From: Shigella phage SP18
Strand: one strand, 5' to 3'
Sequence record: GQ981382
DNA: 64,000 nucleotides
The first letter of the stretch is position 1, and each line of letters opens with the position of its first letter. The notes under the pieces were generated by a model. That model worked only from the letters and a program-made list of their open reading frames with translations, searched no databases and had not been told where the DNA came from. Shown here one piece after another: positions 2,713 to 48,592 of the stretch. The translations under genes and the position numbers were made by a program.

Positions 2713-2762
2713 ATTTTCACCTCAAAGACATCTTAACACAATTTTTGTGGCTTGTACATAAT

Positions 2763-2791
2763 AAAAAGGTCTCCCGAAGGAGACCAAATTT
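2763..2791 (-). terminator. CUUCGG-tetraloop hairpin terminator (GGTCTCC-ttcg-GGAGACC plus U-tract)
   Basis: perfect 7-bp inverted repeat with cgaa/ttcg loop flanked by A/T runs. Confidence 0.55.
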
Positions 2792-2943
2792 TATTCTACT
2801 TTATAGACTTGACCATACGCCATGAAAGTTTCACCTTCCCAGGTTTCGCACGTGATTGTTACAAATTCTGCAAACAAAGGCTTTTTCTCTGCCCAGAGAA
2901 AACCATATTCACCGGTAGCGAGTGTAATCCAGTATTTAGTCAT
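2791..2943 (-). CDS. small hypothetical protein (~50 aa, below ORF-track cutoff)
   Basis: ATG preceded by GGAGA Shine-Dalgarno, ends at the terminator hairpin; coordinates hand-derived. Confidence 0.35.
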   Translation of the reverse strand: MTKYWITLATGEYGFLWAEKKPLFAEFVTITCETWEGETFMAYGQVYKVE

Positions 2944-2983
2944 ATTGTCTCCTAGTAGCGGGAGAATATTCTCCCACCTCTAT

Positions 2984-4816
2984 TTATAGCGTCGCATTCA
3001 TCCAATCTTTGCGCTGCTGGGAATCTTTACCGAATAGCATTTCGAACAGTTCTTTCCAGTTGTCGGGCAATTGAACAACTTCGAATACCGGTTCAAGCAA
3101 TACGCGTTTATACTCGGAATCTTCCAGAGAGCCAAGCCCCTTGATATATCGAATGGTATGCTTCGGAAGTTTATCCTTAGCTTCTTCATAGTCAGGAAGA
3201 GAATAGAACCATTCTTGTTTATCTTTGAGCTGCGCAATAATAACAGGAGTTTTCACAAAGCGAATTCGTCCTTCATGGAACAGTTCTGGCCAGTTACTGA
3301 AAAACGCCAATAATGACGGATAGATACTACCGACACCATCCACATCCGCATCTGTCATGATAGCAATGTTTCGGTAATTCATATTCTCGGCCGGTTGTCC
3401 AATCGTTAAACCAGTAATCGCACACACATCAAAGGCTTCAGCGTTCTTCATAACTTCAACAGCTTTCAAACCCCATGTGTTTTTAAACTTACCACGTAAT
3501 GGATAAGCACCTTGCAATTCACGGTCACGAACCTTGATAAATGGACCAGTTGCAGAATCACCTTCGGTCAGGAACAGAGTCGTTTCCAACTTATCATTGC
3601 CCCATTCGTTGGCCTTAATATGCTTCTGTACCTTGGCCTTTGAAGCTTTCTTATTTGCCTTAGTCTCTGCTGCTTTCTCTGCAGCCAATTTACGGGCTAA
3701 TGCAGCTTCAACAATCGGCATAATCAGCGGTTCATTTTTCAGAATAGCTTGCGCGATTTTCTTAGCATCAATCTTAATGTGATTTCGAATTTCACCAGCC
3801 GGAGAAGTCAATCGCTCCTTAGTCTGGGAATCAAATCGCATGTTGCTCATATCGCGGATGAACATAAGCATGGTGAGACATTCTTTAACTCGTGCCTTGG
3901 TCACCTCGATGCCTTTATATTTGCGCTTAATCGCCGGCTGAAGGTGTTCACAGATATCATCCATAACACATTCAACGTGGTGTCCGCCATTCTTTGTATG
4001 AATGTTGTTGACATAAGTCAGCTGACGGAAACCATCTGGGCTGGTCGTAAAGGCCATCGATACTGTATCAGTTTCCTGGATAACAACTTCGGTTCCGAAT
4101 TGCTTGGAGAACTTCTTGAAATTACCATCAACCTTTTTACCATTAAAGGTGAACTGAATATCCGGATAAACAACCGCGAGAGTCTGCAGACGGTCCAATG
4201 TAATATCCAGATAAATCTGGGACAGACTATTTTCTTCAAAGTGACTAAAATCTGGAACAAATATAACAGTTGTACCTTTGCCCTTAGATTTCTTGGTCGA
4301 CCAACCTTTGTTTTCCATACCGTTGGAGCAGTTAACGGTGATTTCATTTGCACCATCAGCGGTAATCCCTGTGAACAATACGGAGAAAATATTGGTCAGA
4401 GAAGACCCGACGCCATTCATCCCGCCAGTTTTACGTTCAGCATCATCGCCGAAGTTACCACCAGCTTTTGGAATAGTCCATGCTGCAACAGGGCCAGGGA
4501 TTTGTTCACCGTTTTGGTCTGTAACCATTGCTTGAGGAATACCACGACCATTATCAGAAACCGAAATCTGATTATCTTTAATTTGAACATCAATTTTATT
4601 GGCAAATTTAAAACTGGTGCGAATTGCTTCATCAACAGAGTTATCGATAATTTCATCAATCAGTTTTACAATACCAGGAACATAGCTTACGGACTTATAT
4701 TCACCAAACAAGAATCGCTCATGCGCTTCATTTGAACTGGAACCAATATACATCCCGGAACGTTTTTTGATATGCTCGACGTCCGAGAGTACTTTAATTT
4801 CATTATTAATCATCAT
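2984..4816 (-). CDS. 39: DNA topoisomerase II large subunit, fused 39+60 form (GyrB-like ATPase plus Toprim)
   Basis: 610 aa; GHKL ATPase motifs (IDNSVDEA, DNGRGIP, GGMNGVGSS), Toprim EGDSA and MTDADVDG; continuous ORF, no gene-60 split. Confidence 0.9.
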   Translation of the reverse strand: MMINNEIKVLSDVEHIKKRSGMYIGSSSNEAHERFLFGEYKSVSYVPGIVKLIDEIIDNSVDEAIRTSFKFANKIDVQIKDNQISVSDNGRGIPQAMVTDQNGEQIPGPVAAWTIPKAGGNFGDDAERKTGGMNGVGSSLTNIFSVLFTGITADGANEITVNCSNGMENKGWSTKKSKGKGTTVIFVPDFSHFEENSLSQIYLDITLDRLQTLAVVYPDIQFTFNGKKVDGNFKKFSKQFGTEVVIQETDTVSMAFTTSPDGFRQLTYVNNIHTKNGGHHVECVMDDICEHLQPAIKRKYKGIEVTKARVKECLTMLMFIRDMSNMRFDSQTKERLTSPAGEIRNHIKIDAKKIAQAILKNEPLIMPIVEAALARKLAAEKAAETKANKKASKAKVQKHIKANEWGNDKLETTLFLTEGDSATGPFIKVRDRELQGAYPLRGKFKNTWGLKAVEVMKNAEAFDVCAITGLTIGQPAENMNYRNIAIMTDADVDGVGSIYPSLLAFFSNWPELFHEGRIRFVKTPVIIAQLKDKQEWFYSLPDYEEAKDKLPKHTIRYIKGLGSLEDSEYKRVLLEPVFEVVQLPDNWKELFEMLFGKDSQQRKDWMNATL

Positions 4817-14590: not shown

Positions 14591-14821
14591 TTAAACTCCT
14601 GGGGTAGGCGCAAACATCGCCGCGTTCTTAGTTCGCCAATCGGCTGCATCAGTCACTACAGTAGTATAGGCTGCAACGGCCGAAGGAAAAGTCTGATAAT
14701 GAGCATCCGCAATACGATGCTCGTTCGAATAGATTTCAAACGGAACTGATACTTCAACACCTTTAACTTCTTTACCTTCACCAGCTGGATGCGTAAAGGT
14801 TTTGATATTAACACCACCCAT
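14591..14821 (-). CDS. soc: small outer capsid protein Soc, copy 1 (76 aa)
   Basis: MGGVNIKTFTHPAGEGKEVKG...HYQTFPS; Soc-family, RB69-like by memory. Confidence 0.8.
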   Translation of the reverse strand: MGGVNIKTFTHPAGEGKEVKGVEVSVPFEIYSNEHRIADAHYQTFPSAVAAYTTVVTDAADWRTKNAAMFAPTPGV

Positions 14822-15056
14822 GATTAACTCCTGGGGTAGGCGCAAACATCGCCGCGTTCTTAGTTCGCCAATCGGCTGCATCAGTCACTACAGTAGTATA
14901 GGCTGCAACGGCCGAAGGAAAAGTCTGATAATGAGCATCCGCAATACGATGCTCGTTCGAATAGATTTCAAACGGAACTGATACTTCAACACCTTTAACT
15001 TCTTTACCTTCACCAGCTGGATGCGTAAAGGTTTTGATATTAACGAAACCACCCAT
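14808..15056 (-). CDS. soc: small outer capsid protein Soc, copy 2 (82 aa, one extra Phe codon, C-terminus reads through the repeat junction)
   Basis: near-identical to copy 1 at DNA level; ends ...PTPGVNHGWC because the junction lacks the copy-1 stop context. Confidence 0.7.
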   Translation of the reverse strand: MGGFVNIKTFTHPAGEGKEVKGVEVSVPFEIYSNEHRIADAHYQTFPSAVAAYTTVVTDAADWRTKNAAMFAPTPGVNHGWC

Positions 15057-15097
15057 GATTAACTCCTTTGTTGTTTAATTACAGGTGTATTTATAAC

Positions 15098-15616
15098 TTA
15101 ATAACCACGGTCCTGACGAGCAAAGTTCTCAGCATTTTTCAGGTAATACAATTTAAAGATTTCTTCTGCAGATAGACCAAGACCCTGGAACATATTCAGA
15201 ACAAAGTGCAGGATATCAATCATCTCGAATTTAATTTCGAGCTGGTCTTCAGGAGATAAATTATTAATCAGGGTTTGCTGCATTTCGCCATGTTGTGCTT
15301 TCCATGGTTTCCATACGGCCGAGGCAGCTTTCTCGCCATTGGACATACCGCCGAGAGAAGTCAGAAGTTCACGGAATTCGTCGTCAACATAATCTTTCTG
15401 GTTGCGAAGCCATGCAACAACATCGCCCGCGGTTGCCAATTCATCTGGATGTGCGTTATATTCTGGTTTTTCTGTAGCCAGACGAACCTGCAAAGATTTC
15501 TGCATATCAAGCATAATCTGCAGAGGGTCATCATTGCCTTTTAGGACATCATTATACGCATCTTGAGCTTTATCAACACCAGCAATCAGTTGAGAACACT
15601 CGTTAAAATGAGCCAT
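15098..15616 (-). CDS. 56: dCTP pyrophosphatase / dUTPase gp56
   Basis: 172 aa from MAHFNECSQL, resembling T4 gp56 N-terminus and length. Confidence 0.8.
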   Translation of the reverse strand: MAHFNECSQLIAGVDKAQDAYNDVLKGNDDPLQIMLDMQKSLQVRLATEKPEYNAHPDELATAGDVVAWLRNQKDYVDDEFRELLTSLGGMSNGEKAASAVWKPWKAQHGEMQQTLINNLSPEDQLEIKFEMIDILHFVLNMFQGLGLSAEEIFKLYYLKNAENFARQDRGY

Positions 15617-15654
15617 TATATTTTTCCTTATCAATTCATGTTGTTTGTATGTTA

Positions 15655-15680
15655 ATTATATCATATTGGTTTAAAGCATA
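15655..15680 (-). promoter_or_regulatory. candidate middle promoter (MotA box TGCTTTA plus TATAAT) upstream of gene 56
   Basis: minus-strand tatGCTTTAaaccaatatgaTATAAT; spacing about 11-12 nt. Confidence 0.3.
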
Positions 15681-15700
15681 AATACAAGAAAGGAGGATGT

Positions 15701-15898
15701 ATGCTCAAACTATCTAGTCTAATTCAAGCCATCAAAGGCAGTCGTAAGCGAACGATTCTGGTCCTTTCGATACTCTGTTTTGTTCTACTCTGGAATTTCA
15801 TTGTTGTCCCTATTGCATTGGCACATGGTGTTATATTGCCAGTCGTCGCGCTCGAATCAGTTGTAGATGTTTCACTAGCATTAATCGGCCTTATATAG
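15701..15898 (+). CDS. small hydrophobic (two-helix membrane) protein on the opposite strand
   Basis: 65 aa ORF with canonical AAGGAGG SD 6 nt upstream of ATG; sits in the 61-56 intergenic gap where T4 has dam. Confidence 0.45.
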   Translation: MLKLSSLIQAIKGSRKRTILVLSILCFVLLWNFIVVPIALAHGVILPVVALESVVDVSLALIGLI

Positions 15899-16006
15899 GT
15901 GGAACTTACTGGTTGTGCCTATCGCTGCAACACAAGGGGTGCACTTACCCCAGGTCACAATGGAACATATTCATTCCATCATCGGTTACTTTACCGGAAT
16001 CCCTTC

Positions 16007-17035
16007 CTAAACTTTTGCGTACTTCGAAAGTCGCATTCTCGCCATCAATCCTTGAGCAACGTTATCGGCCATATATGATTCGATTTGTTCAGGGGTTGCC
16101 CCTTCTGATTTAACCATCTCATTTATGTCTTTCGTATGCCATGGTGCATTGTCCCAGAACATAACAGCTTCGCCAGCTTCAACGAGCTTCTTCATACGTT
16201 TAATCGTATCCGGATGTCTTGGCTCGTTGTCCATTACCCATACTCTTGTTTCAGCATAAGGAACAGCTTCCAATGCCAATGTGCCACCGGTTATCGCAAT
16301 GCTGTTAGGGATAAACAAACTATCAATTGGACCTTCCATTACCCATACGCGTTTACGCTCATCAATCTTGTCTACTCCATAGACTTTGGAAGCTTCTGGG
16401 TGAGCTTTGATTGTGATATATTTTTGTGGTGCATCTTTGCGAAGAGCTCGTCCTTGGAAAGATTCGATTTCTTTTTTGCCGTTGAAGATAGGAATAACCA
16501 AGCGTGGCTCATTCGTTTCATTCTTATACGTCCCGGGATTAACGGAGTTAACTAATGCAGGCCATTTGTTTGTAAACCATAACCGGTTCCAAACATTGCT
16601 AGGAATACACCGACTTTTTACATACTTAATTATCGGATGTGCTTCTGGTAAAGTATCGAGTCTTTCACAAAAAGCAAGCTGCTCGATAACCGGAGTTTTT
16701 TCTGGTTCTTTCGGAGTTTCTGCAACTTCATTGCGCTGTCTGCCAAAGGCATTCTCCTTATACTTCTCAACCATATATTCCCGGTGTAAATCCGGCTCAA
16801 ACTCTTTTATGTATTTGCTTATATGCGTGGAGTAGTCACAGTTAAAACATTTCACGTAAACCGCGCCATCAGACGGATTGGTATACGCCCAGAATCGAGC
16901 TTTATGTGAATCTTTCTGGGAGTCGCCACAAACTTTACATCTGCAGTTTGCCTTAAATGTGCTCCCGGTGACTTCTCTATAACGTGGTTGATACGATAAA
17001 GCTCTGACTGCAAATTCTTTATCAATATATGACAT
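16007..17035 (-). CDS. 61: DNA primase gp61
   Basis: 342 aa, same length as T4 gp61; N-terminal Cys4 zinc ribbon (CRCKVCGD...CFNCDY) and Toprim core. Confidence 0.9.
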   Translation of the reverse strand: MSYIDKEFAVRALSYQPRYREVTGSTFKANCRCKVCGDSQKDSHKARFWAYTNPSDGAVYVKCFNCDYSTHISKYIKEFEPDLHREYMVEKYKENAFGRQRNEVAETPKEPEKTPVIEQLAFCERLDTLPEAHPIIKYVKSRCIPSNVWNRLWFTNKWPALVNSVNPGTYKNETNEPRLVIPIFNGKKEIESFQGRALRKDAPQKYITIKAHPEASKVYGVDKIDERKRVWVMEGPIDSLFIPNSIAITGGTLALEAVPYAETRVWVMDNEPRHPDTIKRMKKLVEAGEAVMFWDNAPWHTKDINEMVKSEGATPEQIESYMADNVAQGLMARMRLSKYAKV

Positions 17036-17067: not shown

Positions 17068-17235
17068 TTATACTGTAGGTTTATCGTCTTTGTTCTTACG
17101 CTTTTTTGATGGGATTTGTTCAGGGCCTTTATTGACAACCACCCCGGAAGTGGTACCTGTTGCGGTATTAGTTGGGTTTCCACCTGCATCACCGGCAACC
17201 ATATCTTCGTTTATAAAATCTTTGAATGTTTTCAT
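17068..17235 (-). CDS. small protein (55 aa) with IP-like capsid-targeting N-terminus MKTFKDFINED and basic C-terminus
   Basis: ATG preceded by AGGGGG SD; N-terminus resembles MKTYQEFITE of the IP genes; hand-derived coordinates. Confidence 0.4.
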   Translation of the reverse strand: MKTFKDFINEDMVAGDAGGNPTNTATGTTSGVVVNKGPEQIPSKKRKNKDDKPTV

Positions 17236-17254
17236 AACACCCCCTTTCCGCTAT

Positions 17255-17446
17255 TTATACAACAAAGATAGCTTTATCACCATTTGCATCAGTCACTTCA
17301 TAAGTGTCTTCATGATACAACGGAATAATCCAGGTAACACCATCATCAGCGATAACATGGATTGCTTCTTGGTCTTGCGACACGATTTCATATTCTTCAA
17401 AAAGCTGGAAGACCGAAATCTTAGAGCCCGTACACATTGCACTCAT
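17255..17446 (-). CDS. hypothetical acidic protein
   Basis: 63 aa ORF. Confidence 0.45.
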   Translation of the reverse strand: MSAMCTGSKISVFQLFEEYEIVSQDQEAIHVIADDGVTWIIPLYHEDTYEVTDANGDKAIFVV

Positions 17447-33627: not shown

Positions 33628-33947
33628 TTTCCAATTAATACACCGTACAGAGGTTCGTGAGAAGACCTGAACTTGATAGGCTTATAGGTAATAGTACCTT
33701 CATTTTCTGCTTTAATGCGAGCGGCTTCAAATTGAAGTATCATCTCATTTTTGTCAGATTTAATCTTATCAAAATCCGTCGAATTCGTCATTCATACAGC
33801 CTCTTAAAAATCAGGATGTTCGTCTTGAAATATATTACCCAATCGTTTTAATTCATCAGAAGTAAGAATATCTACATCATCAATAGCCATAATATGCCTC
33901 TTAAACTTTTTCGTATTCGTCTTTCATTAGCCAACCTGTCCATGTTA

Positions 33948-47824: not shown

Positions 47825-48019
47825 TCACTTGCGACGACGTTTTGGTAATGGCATTGCTTTACCTGCAGGGGTCAAAGTCACACGCAAAGCATTACCAATA
47901 CCAAGGGATGCTTTAACCAGACCTTTGGCTTTTAACTCACCAAATGCTTGACGTTGTTCAGGGTCACGAGTGTTAACCATCAGACCTTTTTCACCAGCAG
48001 CTTTGATTAATTCTAACAT
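47825..48019 (-). CDS. small hypothetical protein
   Basis: 64 aa ORF between two promoter cassettes. Confidence 0.45.
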   Translation of the reverse strand: MLELIKAAGEKGLMVNTRDPEQRQAFGELKAKGLVKASLGIGNALRVTLTPAGKAMPLPKRRRK

Positions 48020-48060
48020 TTTATTCTCCGTTTGTTTATTTGGTAACTCAGTATGGGAAC

Positions 48061-48090
48061 ATTATACGTCTATCCCCATACTATGTACAC
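48061..48090 (-). promoter_or_regulatory. early promoter (GTGTAC -35, TATAAT -10), paralogous cassette
   Basis: GTGTACatagtatggggatagacgTATAATgttcccatactgagttacc. Confidence 0.6.
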
Positions 48091-48333
48091 TACTTTATAT
48101 AATTTTTAATATCAATCCTGCCCTGGTAGTGCTTGGCAGTTTCCTTCATCTTTTCTATGTCGATACCAACAATCACCTCACATGATTGACTTCCATGATG
48201 GCGTTTAAAATGTTCAATCGCTTCTTCTCGCGTTTGTTTGGATACGCGAGGTCTCATATGATTCATAATGGCTCCTTAGTAAAAATTCATTATGCATCAA
48301 CAGAGACAAGTTTGTACACCTTTAAAATAAAAA

Positions 48334-48349
48334 GGACCCCGAGGGGTCC
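48334..48349 (-). terminator. hairpin (GGACCCC-gag-GGGTCC) with flanking A/T runs
   Basis: inverted repeat downstream of the nucleotidyltransferase region. Confidence 0.45.
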
Positions 48350-48592
48350 TTAGATTGCACTCCAAAAATTATGGAATCTTATAGTATTGATAGCCCAGTT
48401 AACAAACCTGCGAGTTTGCTTGGAAGTTGGTTTACATGTGTACTTGATATTGACCCGACGCCCAGTTTCCCGACAGACCGCTTCGAGATACCAGCGCCGA
48501 CCTTTATTGGGTCTTCCATATGATAAGAAGACCTTGATTTCCTGGTTATCGATAATAGGAATTGTGGTTGTCAAGATATACCTCTTCAACAA
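48350..48592 (-). CDS. small basic hypothetical protein
   Basis: 80 aa ORF overlapping 3' end of upstream gene by 47 nt. Confidence 0.4.
   Translation of the reverse strand: MLKRYILTTTIPIIDNQEIKVFLSYGRPNKGRRWYLEAVCRETGRRVNIKYTCKPTSKQTRRFVNWAINTIRFHNFWSAI

Follow-up and report, generated by a model that had tools for sequence, protein, structure and literature searches.

The small plus-strand reading frame between genes 56 and 61 of Shigella phage SP18 is a genuine conserved gene that is probably transcribed late and is predicted to encode a single-pass protein of the inner membrane; beside it lies the remnant of a tandem paralogue that was probably redundant. The window that we analysed is a stretch of 64,000 nucleotides from this phage (record GQ981382), and we refer to the reading frame as ORF1. 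As a sequence feature ORF1 is ordinary, since databases already list it as a conserved hypothetical protein, identical to deposited proteins. For its role we put forward a more tentative idea. It may serve a so far unrecognised late function of the T-even phages, in which a conserved WN...P...G...P motif would bind or modulate a specific envelope protein of the phage or the host.

The small gene and its family

The features of the locus are collected in Table 1. An earlier, sequence-only reading of this DNA had placed a 390-bp gap between genes 61 and 56, and the boundaries that it gave, 15617-16006, are exact. They run from the ATG of gene 56 (15616, minus strand), whose dCTPase product begins MAHFNECSQ..., to the stop codon of gene 61 (16007, minus strand). 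The same reading had described a hydrophobic frame of 65 residues behind an AAGGAGG Shine-Dalgarno (SD) sequence, and had called it the only convincing plus-strand gene of the window. Both descriptions hold. The frame is present, and its status as a gene is backed by a match to the family phrog_2024, by its occurrence in 712 phage records and by the pattern of selection. We scanned every plus-strand ORF of 50 codons or more, and ORF1 alone has an ATG and an SD without overlapping a minus-strand gene. Its product is MLKLSSLIQAIKGSRKRTILVLSILCFVLLWNFIVVPIALAHGVILPVVALESVVDVSLALIGLI, with Kyte-Doolittle means over 19 residues that peak at 2.7, for residues 18-41. The sequence of the gap is 100% identical to that of Escherichia phage DCP80 and, in the aligned parts, 87-99% identical to other Gapriverviruses.

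Table 1. Features in and around the gap between genes 56 and 61 (positions are those of the window)
Feature	Position	Strand	Details
Gene 56 (dCTPase/dUTPase)	15098..15616	-	left flank, divergent from ORF1
MotA-dependent middle promoter of gene 56	15655..15681	-	box TTATGCTTTA 15681->15672, 11-nt spacer, TATAAT 15660->15655
Candidate gp55-type late promoter CATAAATA	15677..15684	+	consensus TATAAATA at -13 to -6
Shine-Dalgarno AAGGAGG	15690..15696	+	4 nt 5' of the ORF1 ATG
ORF1, small membrane protein gene (predicted)	15701..15898	+	ATG 15701, TAG 15896-15898; 65 aa; phrog_2024
Deletion junction GTGGAACT	15899..15906	+	from the alignment with nine congeners
ORF2 remnant	15900..16010	+	36 C-terminal codons and stop, WNLLVVPIAATQGVHLPQVTMEHIHSIIGYFTGIPS*; no start codon or SD; pseudogene
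Gene 61 (DNA primase)	16007..17035	-	right flank, convergent with ORF1 and the ORF2 remnant

The ORF1 protein matches the phrog_2024 profile from end to end (E=1.2e-26, residues 1-65 on profile positions 1-65 of 65). This is the RB32ORF030w / VR7ORF033w (VR7_gp033) family, pVOG VOG1982, and it is labelled hypothetical protein. The T4, Moonvirus and Klebsiella-phage types match the same profile, as does the ORF2 type described below. In phage VR7 the counterpart of ORF1 is annotated as VR7ORF033w, "similar to RB32 ORF030w", and the proteins of Escherichia phages P896 and DCP80 are 100% identical to that of ORF1. Our assignment of ORF1 to the family rests on the full profile match, a length within the range of 62-73 aa, the core W-N-x4-P-x5-G-x3-P and the position at gene 61. 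The literature searches returned no paper on the family, the name ORF030w included.

The family is widespread among T4-like phages of enterobacteria. With tblastn it was found in 712 phage records, and in 687 of these the match covers at least 80%; scans for related loci with single sequences gave 11 loci. A profile search of 5.8 billion proteins collected 117 clusters (clustering at 90% identity) of 41-73 aa, most of them 62-69 aa, and those cluster members whose source is named all come from T4-like enterobacterial phages or enterobacterial assemblies. HMMER, run exhaustively against 1.84 billion representatives, found nothing beyond this T4-like enterobacterial group; it yielded only four matches, one of which is a spurious 449-aa repeat protein (P0037), and the family is therefore a narrow one.

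ORF1 is intact in all nine congeners compared. Among these genomes the variable sites fall 19/5/23 on the three codon positions, and pN/pS lies at 0.2-0.6 in most pairs. As far as substitutions can tell, this pattern is what one expects of a hydrophobic protein on which purifying selection acts. Between genera the identity drops to 26-35%, with the frame, the length, the SD and five invariant residues kept, and an AGGAGG-like SD is retained 5' of the homologues at all loci compared. A chance reading frame, in an AT-rich spacer left behind by the loss of dam, would suit a short ORF that has no Pfam domain and lies in an interval that holds dam in T4. However, chance is ruled out by the 712 phage records (the dam-bearing T4 among them), the phrog_2024 match, the purifying selection and the retention of both the SD and a promoter motif, and we give it practically no weight. 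The comparisons indicate that ORF1 is a genuine conserved gene of the T-even phages, neither a chance ORF nor a substitute for dam.

Gene order, dam and a truncated second copy

The relationship with dam needs some correction. The sequence-only reading had described ORF1 as an ORF where T4 carries dam. The T4 record does have dam in the 56-61 interval, but the swap that this wording implies did not survive the comparison, as T4 carries dam plus a small homologue. This homologue has 66 codons and 52% identity to ORF1, lies between dam and 61 on the plus strand (NC_000866, 17738-17938) and shares 4 nt with the end of gene 61. With both genes present in T4, ORF1 is excluded as a dam replacement. 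T4 Dam and ORF1 have only their map interval (56-61) in common, without homology, and T4 Dam gave no tblastn match in the 64-kb window at E<=1.

The T4 ORF resembles ORF1 in its length (within one residue), in its SD (AAAGGAGG), in being convergent with gene 61 and in having a late-type motif upstream, the T4 form of which is GATAAATA, 21 nt from the ATG. The two differ in that dam stands between the T4 ORF and gene 56 with its middle promoter, whereas ORF1 lies back-to-back with that promoter. The annotation of NC_000866 omits the T4 homologue. In a collection of 15 billion proteins we found no NCBI accession for the exact T4 protein; near-identical proteins in other Tequatroviruses are annotated as hypothetical. 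As the T4 copy is missing from RefSeq, expression and knockout screens that are based on annotation would overlook it.

Comparison of the 61-56 gap across phages, a check that had been proposed along with the sequence-only reading, found the family gene kept against the 3' end of gene 61. The two genes stand tail-to-tail in Tequatro-, Mosig-, Dhaka-, Gapriver-, Moon- and Kanagawavirus and in the T4-like phages of Klebsiella. In most genera the family gene abuts gene 61, usually with a 4-nt overlap of the stops (23 nt in Kanagawavirus Q7622). It is not beside gene 61 in Serratia phage CHI14 or in an Acinetobacter phage. What stands between the small gene and gene 56 is far more variable: dam in T4, a homing endonuclease gene in fPS-2, a MazG-like gene in Moonvirus and Kanagawavirus, and nothing in Mosigvirus, Dhakavirus and Gaprivervirus. 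Because the small gene is kept beside gene 61 whatever separates it from gene 56, dam is, on these maps, an extra cassette inserted between the two, and the small gene has been conserved as the ancestral occupant beside gene 61. Comparative work on the 56-61 interval should take this corrected order into account. The interval lies in a hypervariable region of accessory genes, where sp (spackle) is found too.

ORF1 departs from the typical member of the family in one respect. In most genera a single copy overlaps gene 61, whereas in SP18 what is left of a second copy, ORF2, lies between the two genes. The 108 bp between ORF1 and gene 61 are a truncated paralogue, not spacer. Residues 28-66 of the ORF2 protein of phage VR26 align to 15891-16007 with 90% identity (E=2e-20), and the end of the remnant overlaps that of gene 61 by 4 nt. 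An intact ORF2 of 66 aa, which matches phrog_2024, is present in VR26, P479, UPEC01 and TH15, and in Dhakavirus, Kanagawavirus and the Klebsiella phages the only copy is ORF2-like. In SP18 a deletion of 97 bp between two copies of the 8-mer GTGGAACT has taken the start of ORF2 and its N-terminal half (about 30 codons). Both copies of the 8-mer are present in the four phages with an intact ORF2, and the corresponding alignment columns, 284-380, are gapped in the SP18 window only. The sequence-only reading had overlooked the truncated paralogue in 15899-16010.

ORF2 is broken in five of the congeners, SP18 included, and in five different ways. Besides the SP18 deletion there is a +1 frameshift in VR7, a stop at codon 2 with a 2-bp deletion in VR20, the same stop at codon 2 with a 26-bp deletion in RZ, and in EAWsc9 the loss of the ATG together with deletions of 2 bp and 80 bp. 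Since ORF2 has decayed by five routes while ORF1 is always intact, the pattern suggests that the two Gaprivervirus paralogues are redundant and that selection keeps one intact copy.

The ORF2 remnant also contains a terminator-like hairpin (15936-15951, minus strand), the stems of which are the codons of the invariant Gly and Pro. We treat it as a by-product of the coding sequence and not as an established terminator.

Back-to-back middle and probable late promoters, and transcription of the gap

Late promoters of T4 consist of TATAAATA at -13 to -6 (PMC1524935), and a candidate of this gp55 type precedes ORF1. Within the 64 kb the plus strand has the heptamer ATAAATA just once, at 15678 and 16 nt before the ATG; the count expected is about 12 from base composition and 8.1 +/- 2.7 from a Markov-1 model. 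On the minus strand there are six, including sites just upstream of e, 49, soc and 61.1. The genes e, 49 and soc have late promoters in T4, and as the minus-strand sites precede them, the motif is predictive in the SP18 genome. ORF1 is like soc, e and 49 in having a TATAAATA-like box shortly 5' of an SD and ATG, amid early and middle genes. The difference is that these three lie on the minus strand with the early genes, and ORF1 is the only such case on the plus strand.

The motif recurs upstream of the relatives of ORF1 in each of the seven other genera examined, in one of them as a near match. In Tequatro-, Mosig-, Dhaka-, Gapriver- and Kanagawavirus and in the Klebsiella phages, NATAAATA lies 16-22 nt 5' of the first family gene. 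The Gaprivervirus form is CATAAATA, 16 nt from the ATG; the T4 type has GATAAATA at 19-21 nt, the Mosigvirus, Dhakavirus and fPS-2 type AATAAATA at 21-22 nt, and Kanagawavirus and the Klebsiella phages the perfect TATAAATA at 19-20 nt. Moonvirus has a near match, ATTAAATA, at 15 nt. The T4 motif has no MotA box adjacent to it, so the motif is not merely the A/T-rich flank of a middle promoter.

Two details of the box are unusual for a late promoter. One is the C at -13. The T at this position is the least conserved of the late promoter (PMC2988020, PMC1524935), and its documented common variant is A. The other is the predicted start near 15690, which would leave a leader of 11 nt with the SD at its extreme 5' end. 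On sequence grounds we nevertheless regard CATAAATA at 15677-15684 as very likely the gp55 late promoter of ORF1. As ORF1 is apparently the only "late"-strand gene in a 64-kb block of early and middle genes, it would make a clean case for the study of gp55 promoters with a base other than T at -13. The late-promoter motif had been overlooked in the sequence-only reading. In our searches of the literature we found neither Ribo-seq of T4 nor a TSS map.

The same reading had proposed a MotA-box middle promoter for gene 56 on the minus strand, and this is borne out by a consensus box, 11 nt of spacer and a TATAAT. The MotA consensus is (a/t)(a/t)(a/t)TGCTTtA, 12 +/- 1 bp upstream of a good sigma-70 -10 element (PMC2988021). 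Box and spacing fit it exactly, and the minus strand has six strict matches in all. It aligns with the T4 promoter upstream of 56, which RefSeq ties to oriA; priming of oriA from a MotA promoter has been described in T4 (PMC3016281). The suggestion that ORF1 and the gene 56 promoter are transcribed convergently has to be dropped, as the arrangement is divergent, the two lying back-to-back with base 15678 in common. Convergence with ORF1 is limited to the transcripts of gene 61. In SP18 the ATAAATA adjoins the A/T-rich flank of the opposite-strand MotA box. Its presence may in part be a by-product of the middle promoter, although the arrangement in T4 speaks against this.

If ORF1 is transcribed late, gp55-RNA polymerase would start from CATAAATA, the very short leader would begin at the SD, and the transcript would continue antisense into gene 61. 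This raises the question of whether the locus acts mainly at the level of RNA, with the protein secondary. Late antisense transcription into gene 61 could shut off or process the primase mRNA, or the gap could serve as terminator, spacer or oriA-promoter sequence. At some T4 loci either strand is transcribed, each at its own time (PMC2988020), a terminator on the minus strand is annotated in the fPS-2 record within the 5' end of the ORF, and the overlap of the family gene with the stop of gene 61 leaves genomes with a single copy no room for a terminator. However, the folding of the gap RNA differs little from that of shuffled sequences (z ~ -1 on either strand), and the gap has no match in Rfam. 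Furthermore, the conservation of amino acids alongside synonymous turnover, the invariant residues and the retained SD and ATG are marks of selection on a protein. An antisense effect may coexist with coding but would leave the coding signature unexplained, and we consider a mainly RNA-level role unlikely.

The predicted membrane protein and its possible role

The product of ORF1 is predicted to be a single-pass protein of the inner membrane with its N-terminus inside and its C-terminus outside, and with a transmembrane helix at about residues 18-41. An AlphaFold2 model built from an alignment of 43 sequences (pLDDT 79.9) has helices at residues 3-13, 15-41 and 51-62 and a loop at 42-50. The topology is predicted from the charges: among 15 sampled members the N-terminal segment carries +1 to +7 and the C-terminal segment 0 to -2, and a basic N-terminus with a neutral to acidic C-terminus points to the N-in/C-out orientation. 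A short, basic, amphipathic N-terminus would then lie in the cytoplasm, and a hydrophobic, slightly acidic tail of about 24 residues in the periplasm. For a membrane peptide of 65 aa, AlphaFold2 is a weak guide to the loop and the C-terminal helix, and the C-terminal segment might insert as a second short helix.

In 43 diverse members W31, N32, P37, G43 and P47 are invariant, which gives the pattern W-N-x4-P-x5-G-x3-P. This block, together with E/D52, is predicted to sit where the helix ends on the periplasmic side and in the juxtamembrane loop. Searches for remote relatives pointed to no function. Structural neighbours in BFVD are family members only, there are none by fold in the PDB, and the profile search returned noise only. 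The ORF1 protein has no Pfam match at E<=10, and its matches in NCBIfam are noise. A lipoprotein or spanin was considered and rejected on the alignments, where Cys26 is not conserved and has no lipobox context. A type I toxin of the Hok or Ldr kind was likewise rejected; a single member out of 43 touches Ldr_toxin at E=0.1, which is noise.

A small, hydrophobic and presumably late phage protein naturally brings holins to mind. ORF1 is like the small holins (class II/III and holin T) in size, in having a transmembrane helix and in its probable late expression; at least one transmembrane domain, as holins require, is predicted. A holin or pinholin would oligomerise late and permeabilise the inner membrane, and the Asn in the middle of the helix could drive such oligomerisation. 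Two public records do use the name ("holin family protein" in EAWsc9 and the UniRef entry "Holin" for OE5505). However, the labels of the EAWsc9 record are unreliable, since it also has "ovule protein" and "conjugal transfer protein" for T4 genes. ORF1 has no sequence or profile similarity to phage holins, and no holin family of Pfam (at E<=1) or NCBIfam is matched by it or by the 43 members, which match no other Pfam family either. The C-terminus, HGVILPVVALESVVDVSLALIGLI, has a net charge of -2 and is hydrophobic where a holin would have a charged hydrophilic tail, and the charged patch is N-terminal instead. The AlphaFold2 model has just one helix of membrane length.

Nor is ORF1 linked to an endolysin. 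Its neighbours encode a primase and a dCTPase, and some 44 kb separate it from the endolysin gene e, which starts near 59.69 kb. T4 requires holin T for lysis, and T-even phages have the antiholins RI and RIII. Because lysis of T4 needs holin T, the ORF1-family protein is not a sufficient holin. For want of a family match, of the right C-terminal character and of linkage to a lysis cassette, we reject the holin identity, which we consider very improbable; the protein does not look like a free-standing hole-former.

We instead favour, tentatively, a late single-pass micro-protein that binds a partner in the membrane and so affects a step related to the envelope or to lysis. In this model the Asn in mid-membrane and the conserved interfacial motif would mediate helix-helix contacts with the partner. 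Late in infection, the most plausible outcome of such binding would be the tuning of a process related to the envelope or to lysis. Candidate partners would be the holin/antiholin/spanin machinery or a membrane-acting defence effector.

The main alternative to the lysis or envelope reading is a late protective factor, acting in superinfection exclusion or as an anti-defence protein, that would block, at the inner membrane, a membrane-acting abortive-infection effector of the host or a prophage, or the DNA of an incoming phage. The predicted N-in/C-out topology with a conserved motif at the periplasmic face would suit such a protein. So would the fast divergence into subtypes (the T4 type, the "MGTIFYQIWKL" type and the Moonvirus type), the gain and loss of tandem paralogues, which is typical of accessory genes in an arms race, and the hypervariable accessory neighbourhood with sp. 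On the other hand, the ORF1 protein matches none of the PADLOC-associated families. Its candidate promoter is of the late type, whereas imm and sp, known exclusion genes of T4, are early. We rate a protective role as rather unlikely, although it overlaps with the partner-binding model.

If the partner-binding model is true, the ORF1 protein would be a new player in the control of T4 lysis or in late-stage protection. That one paralogue is always kept suggests a membrane function that is selected and yet redundant.

Family members and their public names

The reference genome of T4 carries an unannotated member of phrog_2024, the family of small predicted membrane proteins to which ORF1 belongs. 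It encodes 66 aa, and no NCBI accession was found for its exact sequence. Other members have been deposited as "DNA packaging ATPase" or "dCTP pyrophosphatase" (see the table), and the wrong names on family members are annotation errors that propagate. The name "holin", given to members in EAWsc9 and in UniRef OE5505, is without support.

Of all records, that of Escherichia phage DCP80 (PQ671644.1, L026 among the compared loci) comes nearest to the gap; it is only 140,978 bp long and is matched by the gap query in two places. Around the locus its genes are arranged differently from those of the other Gapriverviruses, with RNA ligase and endonuclease II lying near the primase. This record looks rearranged or mis-assembled.

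Features of the window and of compared loci
Feature	Location	Strand	Remark
T4 family member	NC_000866 17738-17938 (L003 4739-4939)	plus	66 aa
UPEC01 family member	L013 691-891		misnamed
dhaeg family member	L027 1926-2126		misnamed
Klebsiella phage SAKp28 family member	protein P0095		misnamed
segF, VR7 and T4	L001 1321-1992; L003 2607-3281		homing endonuclease gene
soc direct repeat	window 14594-14812; 14826-15044		219 nt, 100% identical, spacing 232 nt
soc-gene 56 junction	window 15057-15097		segF missing
Hairpin GGGGTGCACTTACCCC	window 15936-15951		GC-rich
Gene 61.1	window 17068-17235	minus	small gene of the primase cluster
Perfect box TATAAATA	window 17251-17258	minus	16 nt 5' of the 61.1 ATG
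Second perfect box	window 2987	minus	ahead of an ORF whose product begins MTKYW
Third perfect box	window 52621		no obvious start codon close by

The soc duplication and the absence of segF

The small outer capsid gene, soc, is present in the window as two tandem copies. An 801-bp query covering the repeat spanned only 569 bp in all of the relatives listed, and these therefore have a single soc, so the duplication is unique to the window genome. The doubling must have arisen very recently, or else it is an artefact of assembly. In T4 and VR7 segF sits between soc and gene 56, whereas in the window soc directly adjoins gene 56.

Other candidate signals and stretches without minus-strand ORFs of at least 60 aa

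Full-consensus matches to the gp55-type late promoter occur elsewhere in the window. Because one lies immediately upstream of gene 61.1, its sequence suggests a candidate late promoter for this gene as well.

Minus-strand ORFs of at least 60 aa are absent from window 2752-2989, 33657-33851 and 47970-48353, where the only plus-strand ORFs are TTG- or GTG-initiated and unconvincing.

The hairpin, which was marked as resembling a minus-strand terminator 3' of gene 61, falls within the ORF2 remnant, the truncated second tandem paralogue of ORF1. It may be a by-product of the coding sequence, since its stems are the invariant Gly and Pro codons; even so, it might act on gene 61 transcripts.
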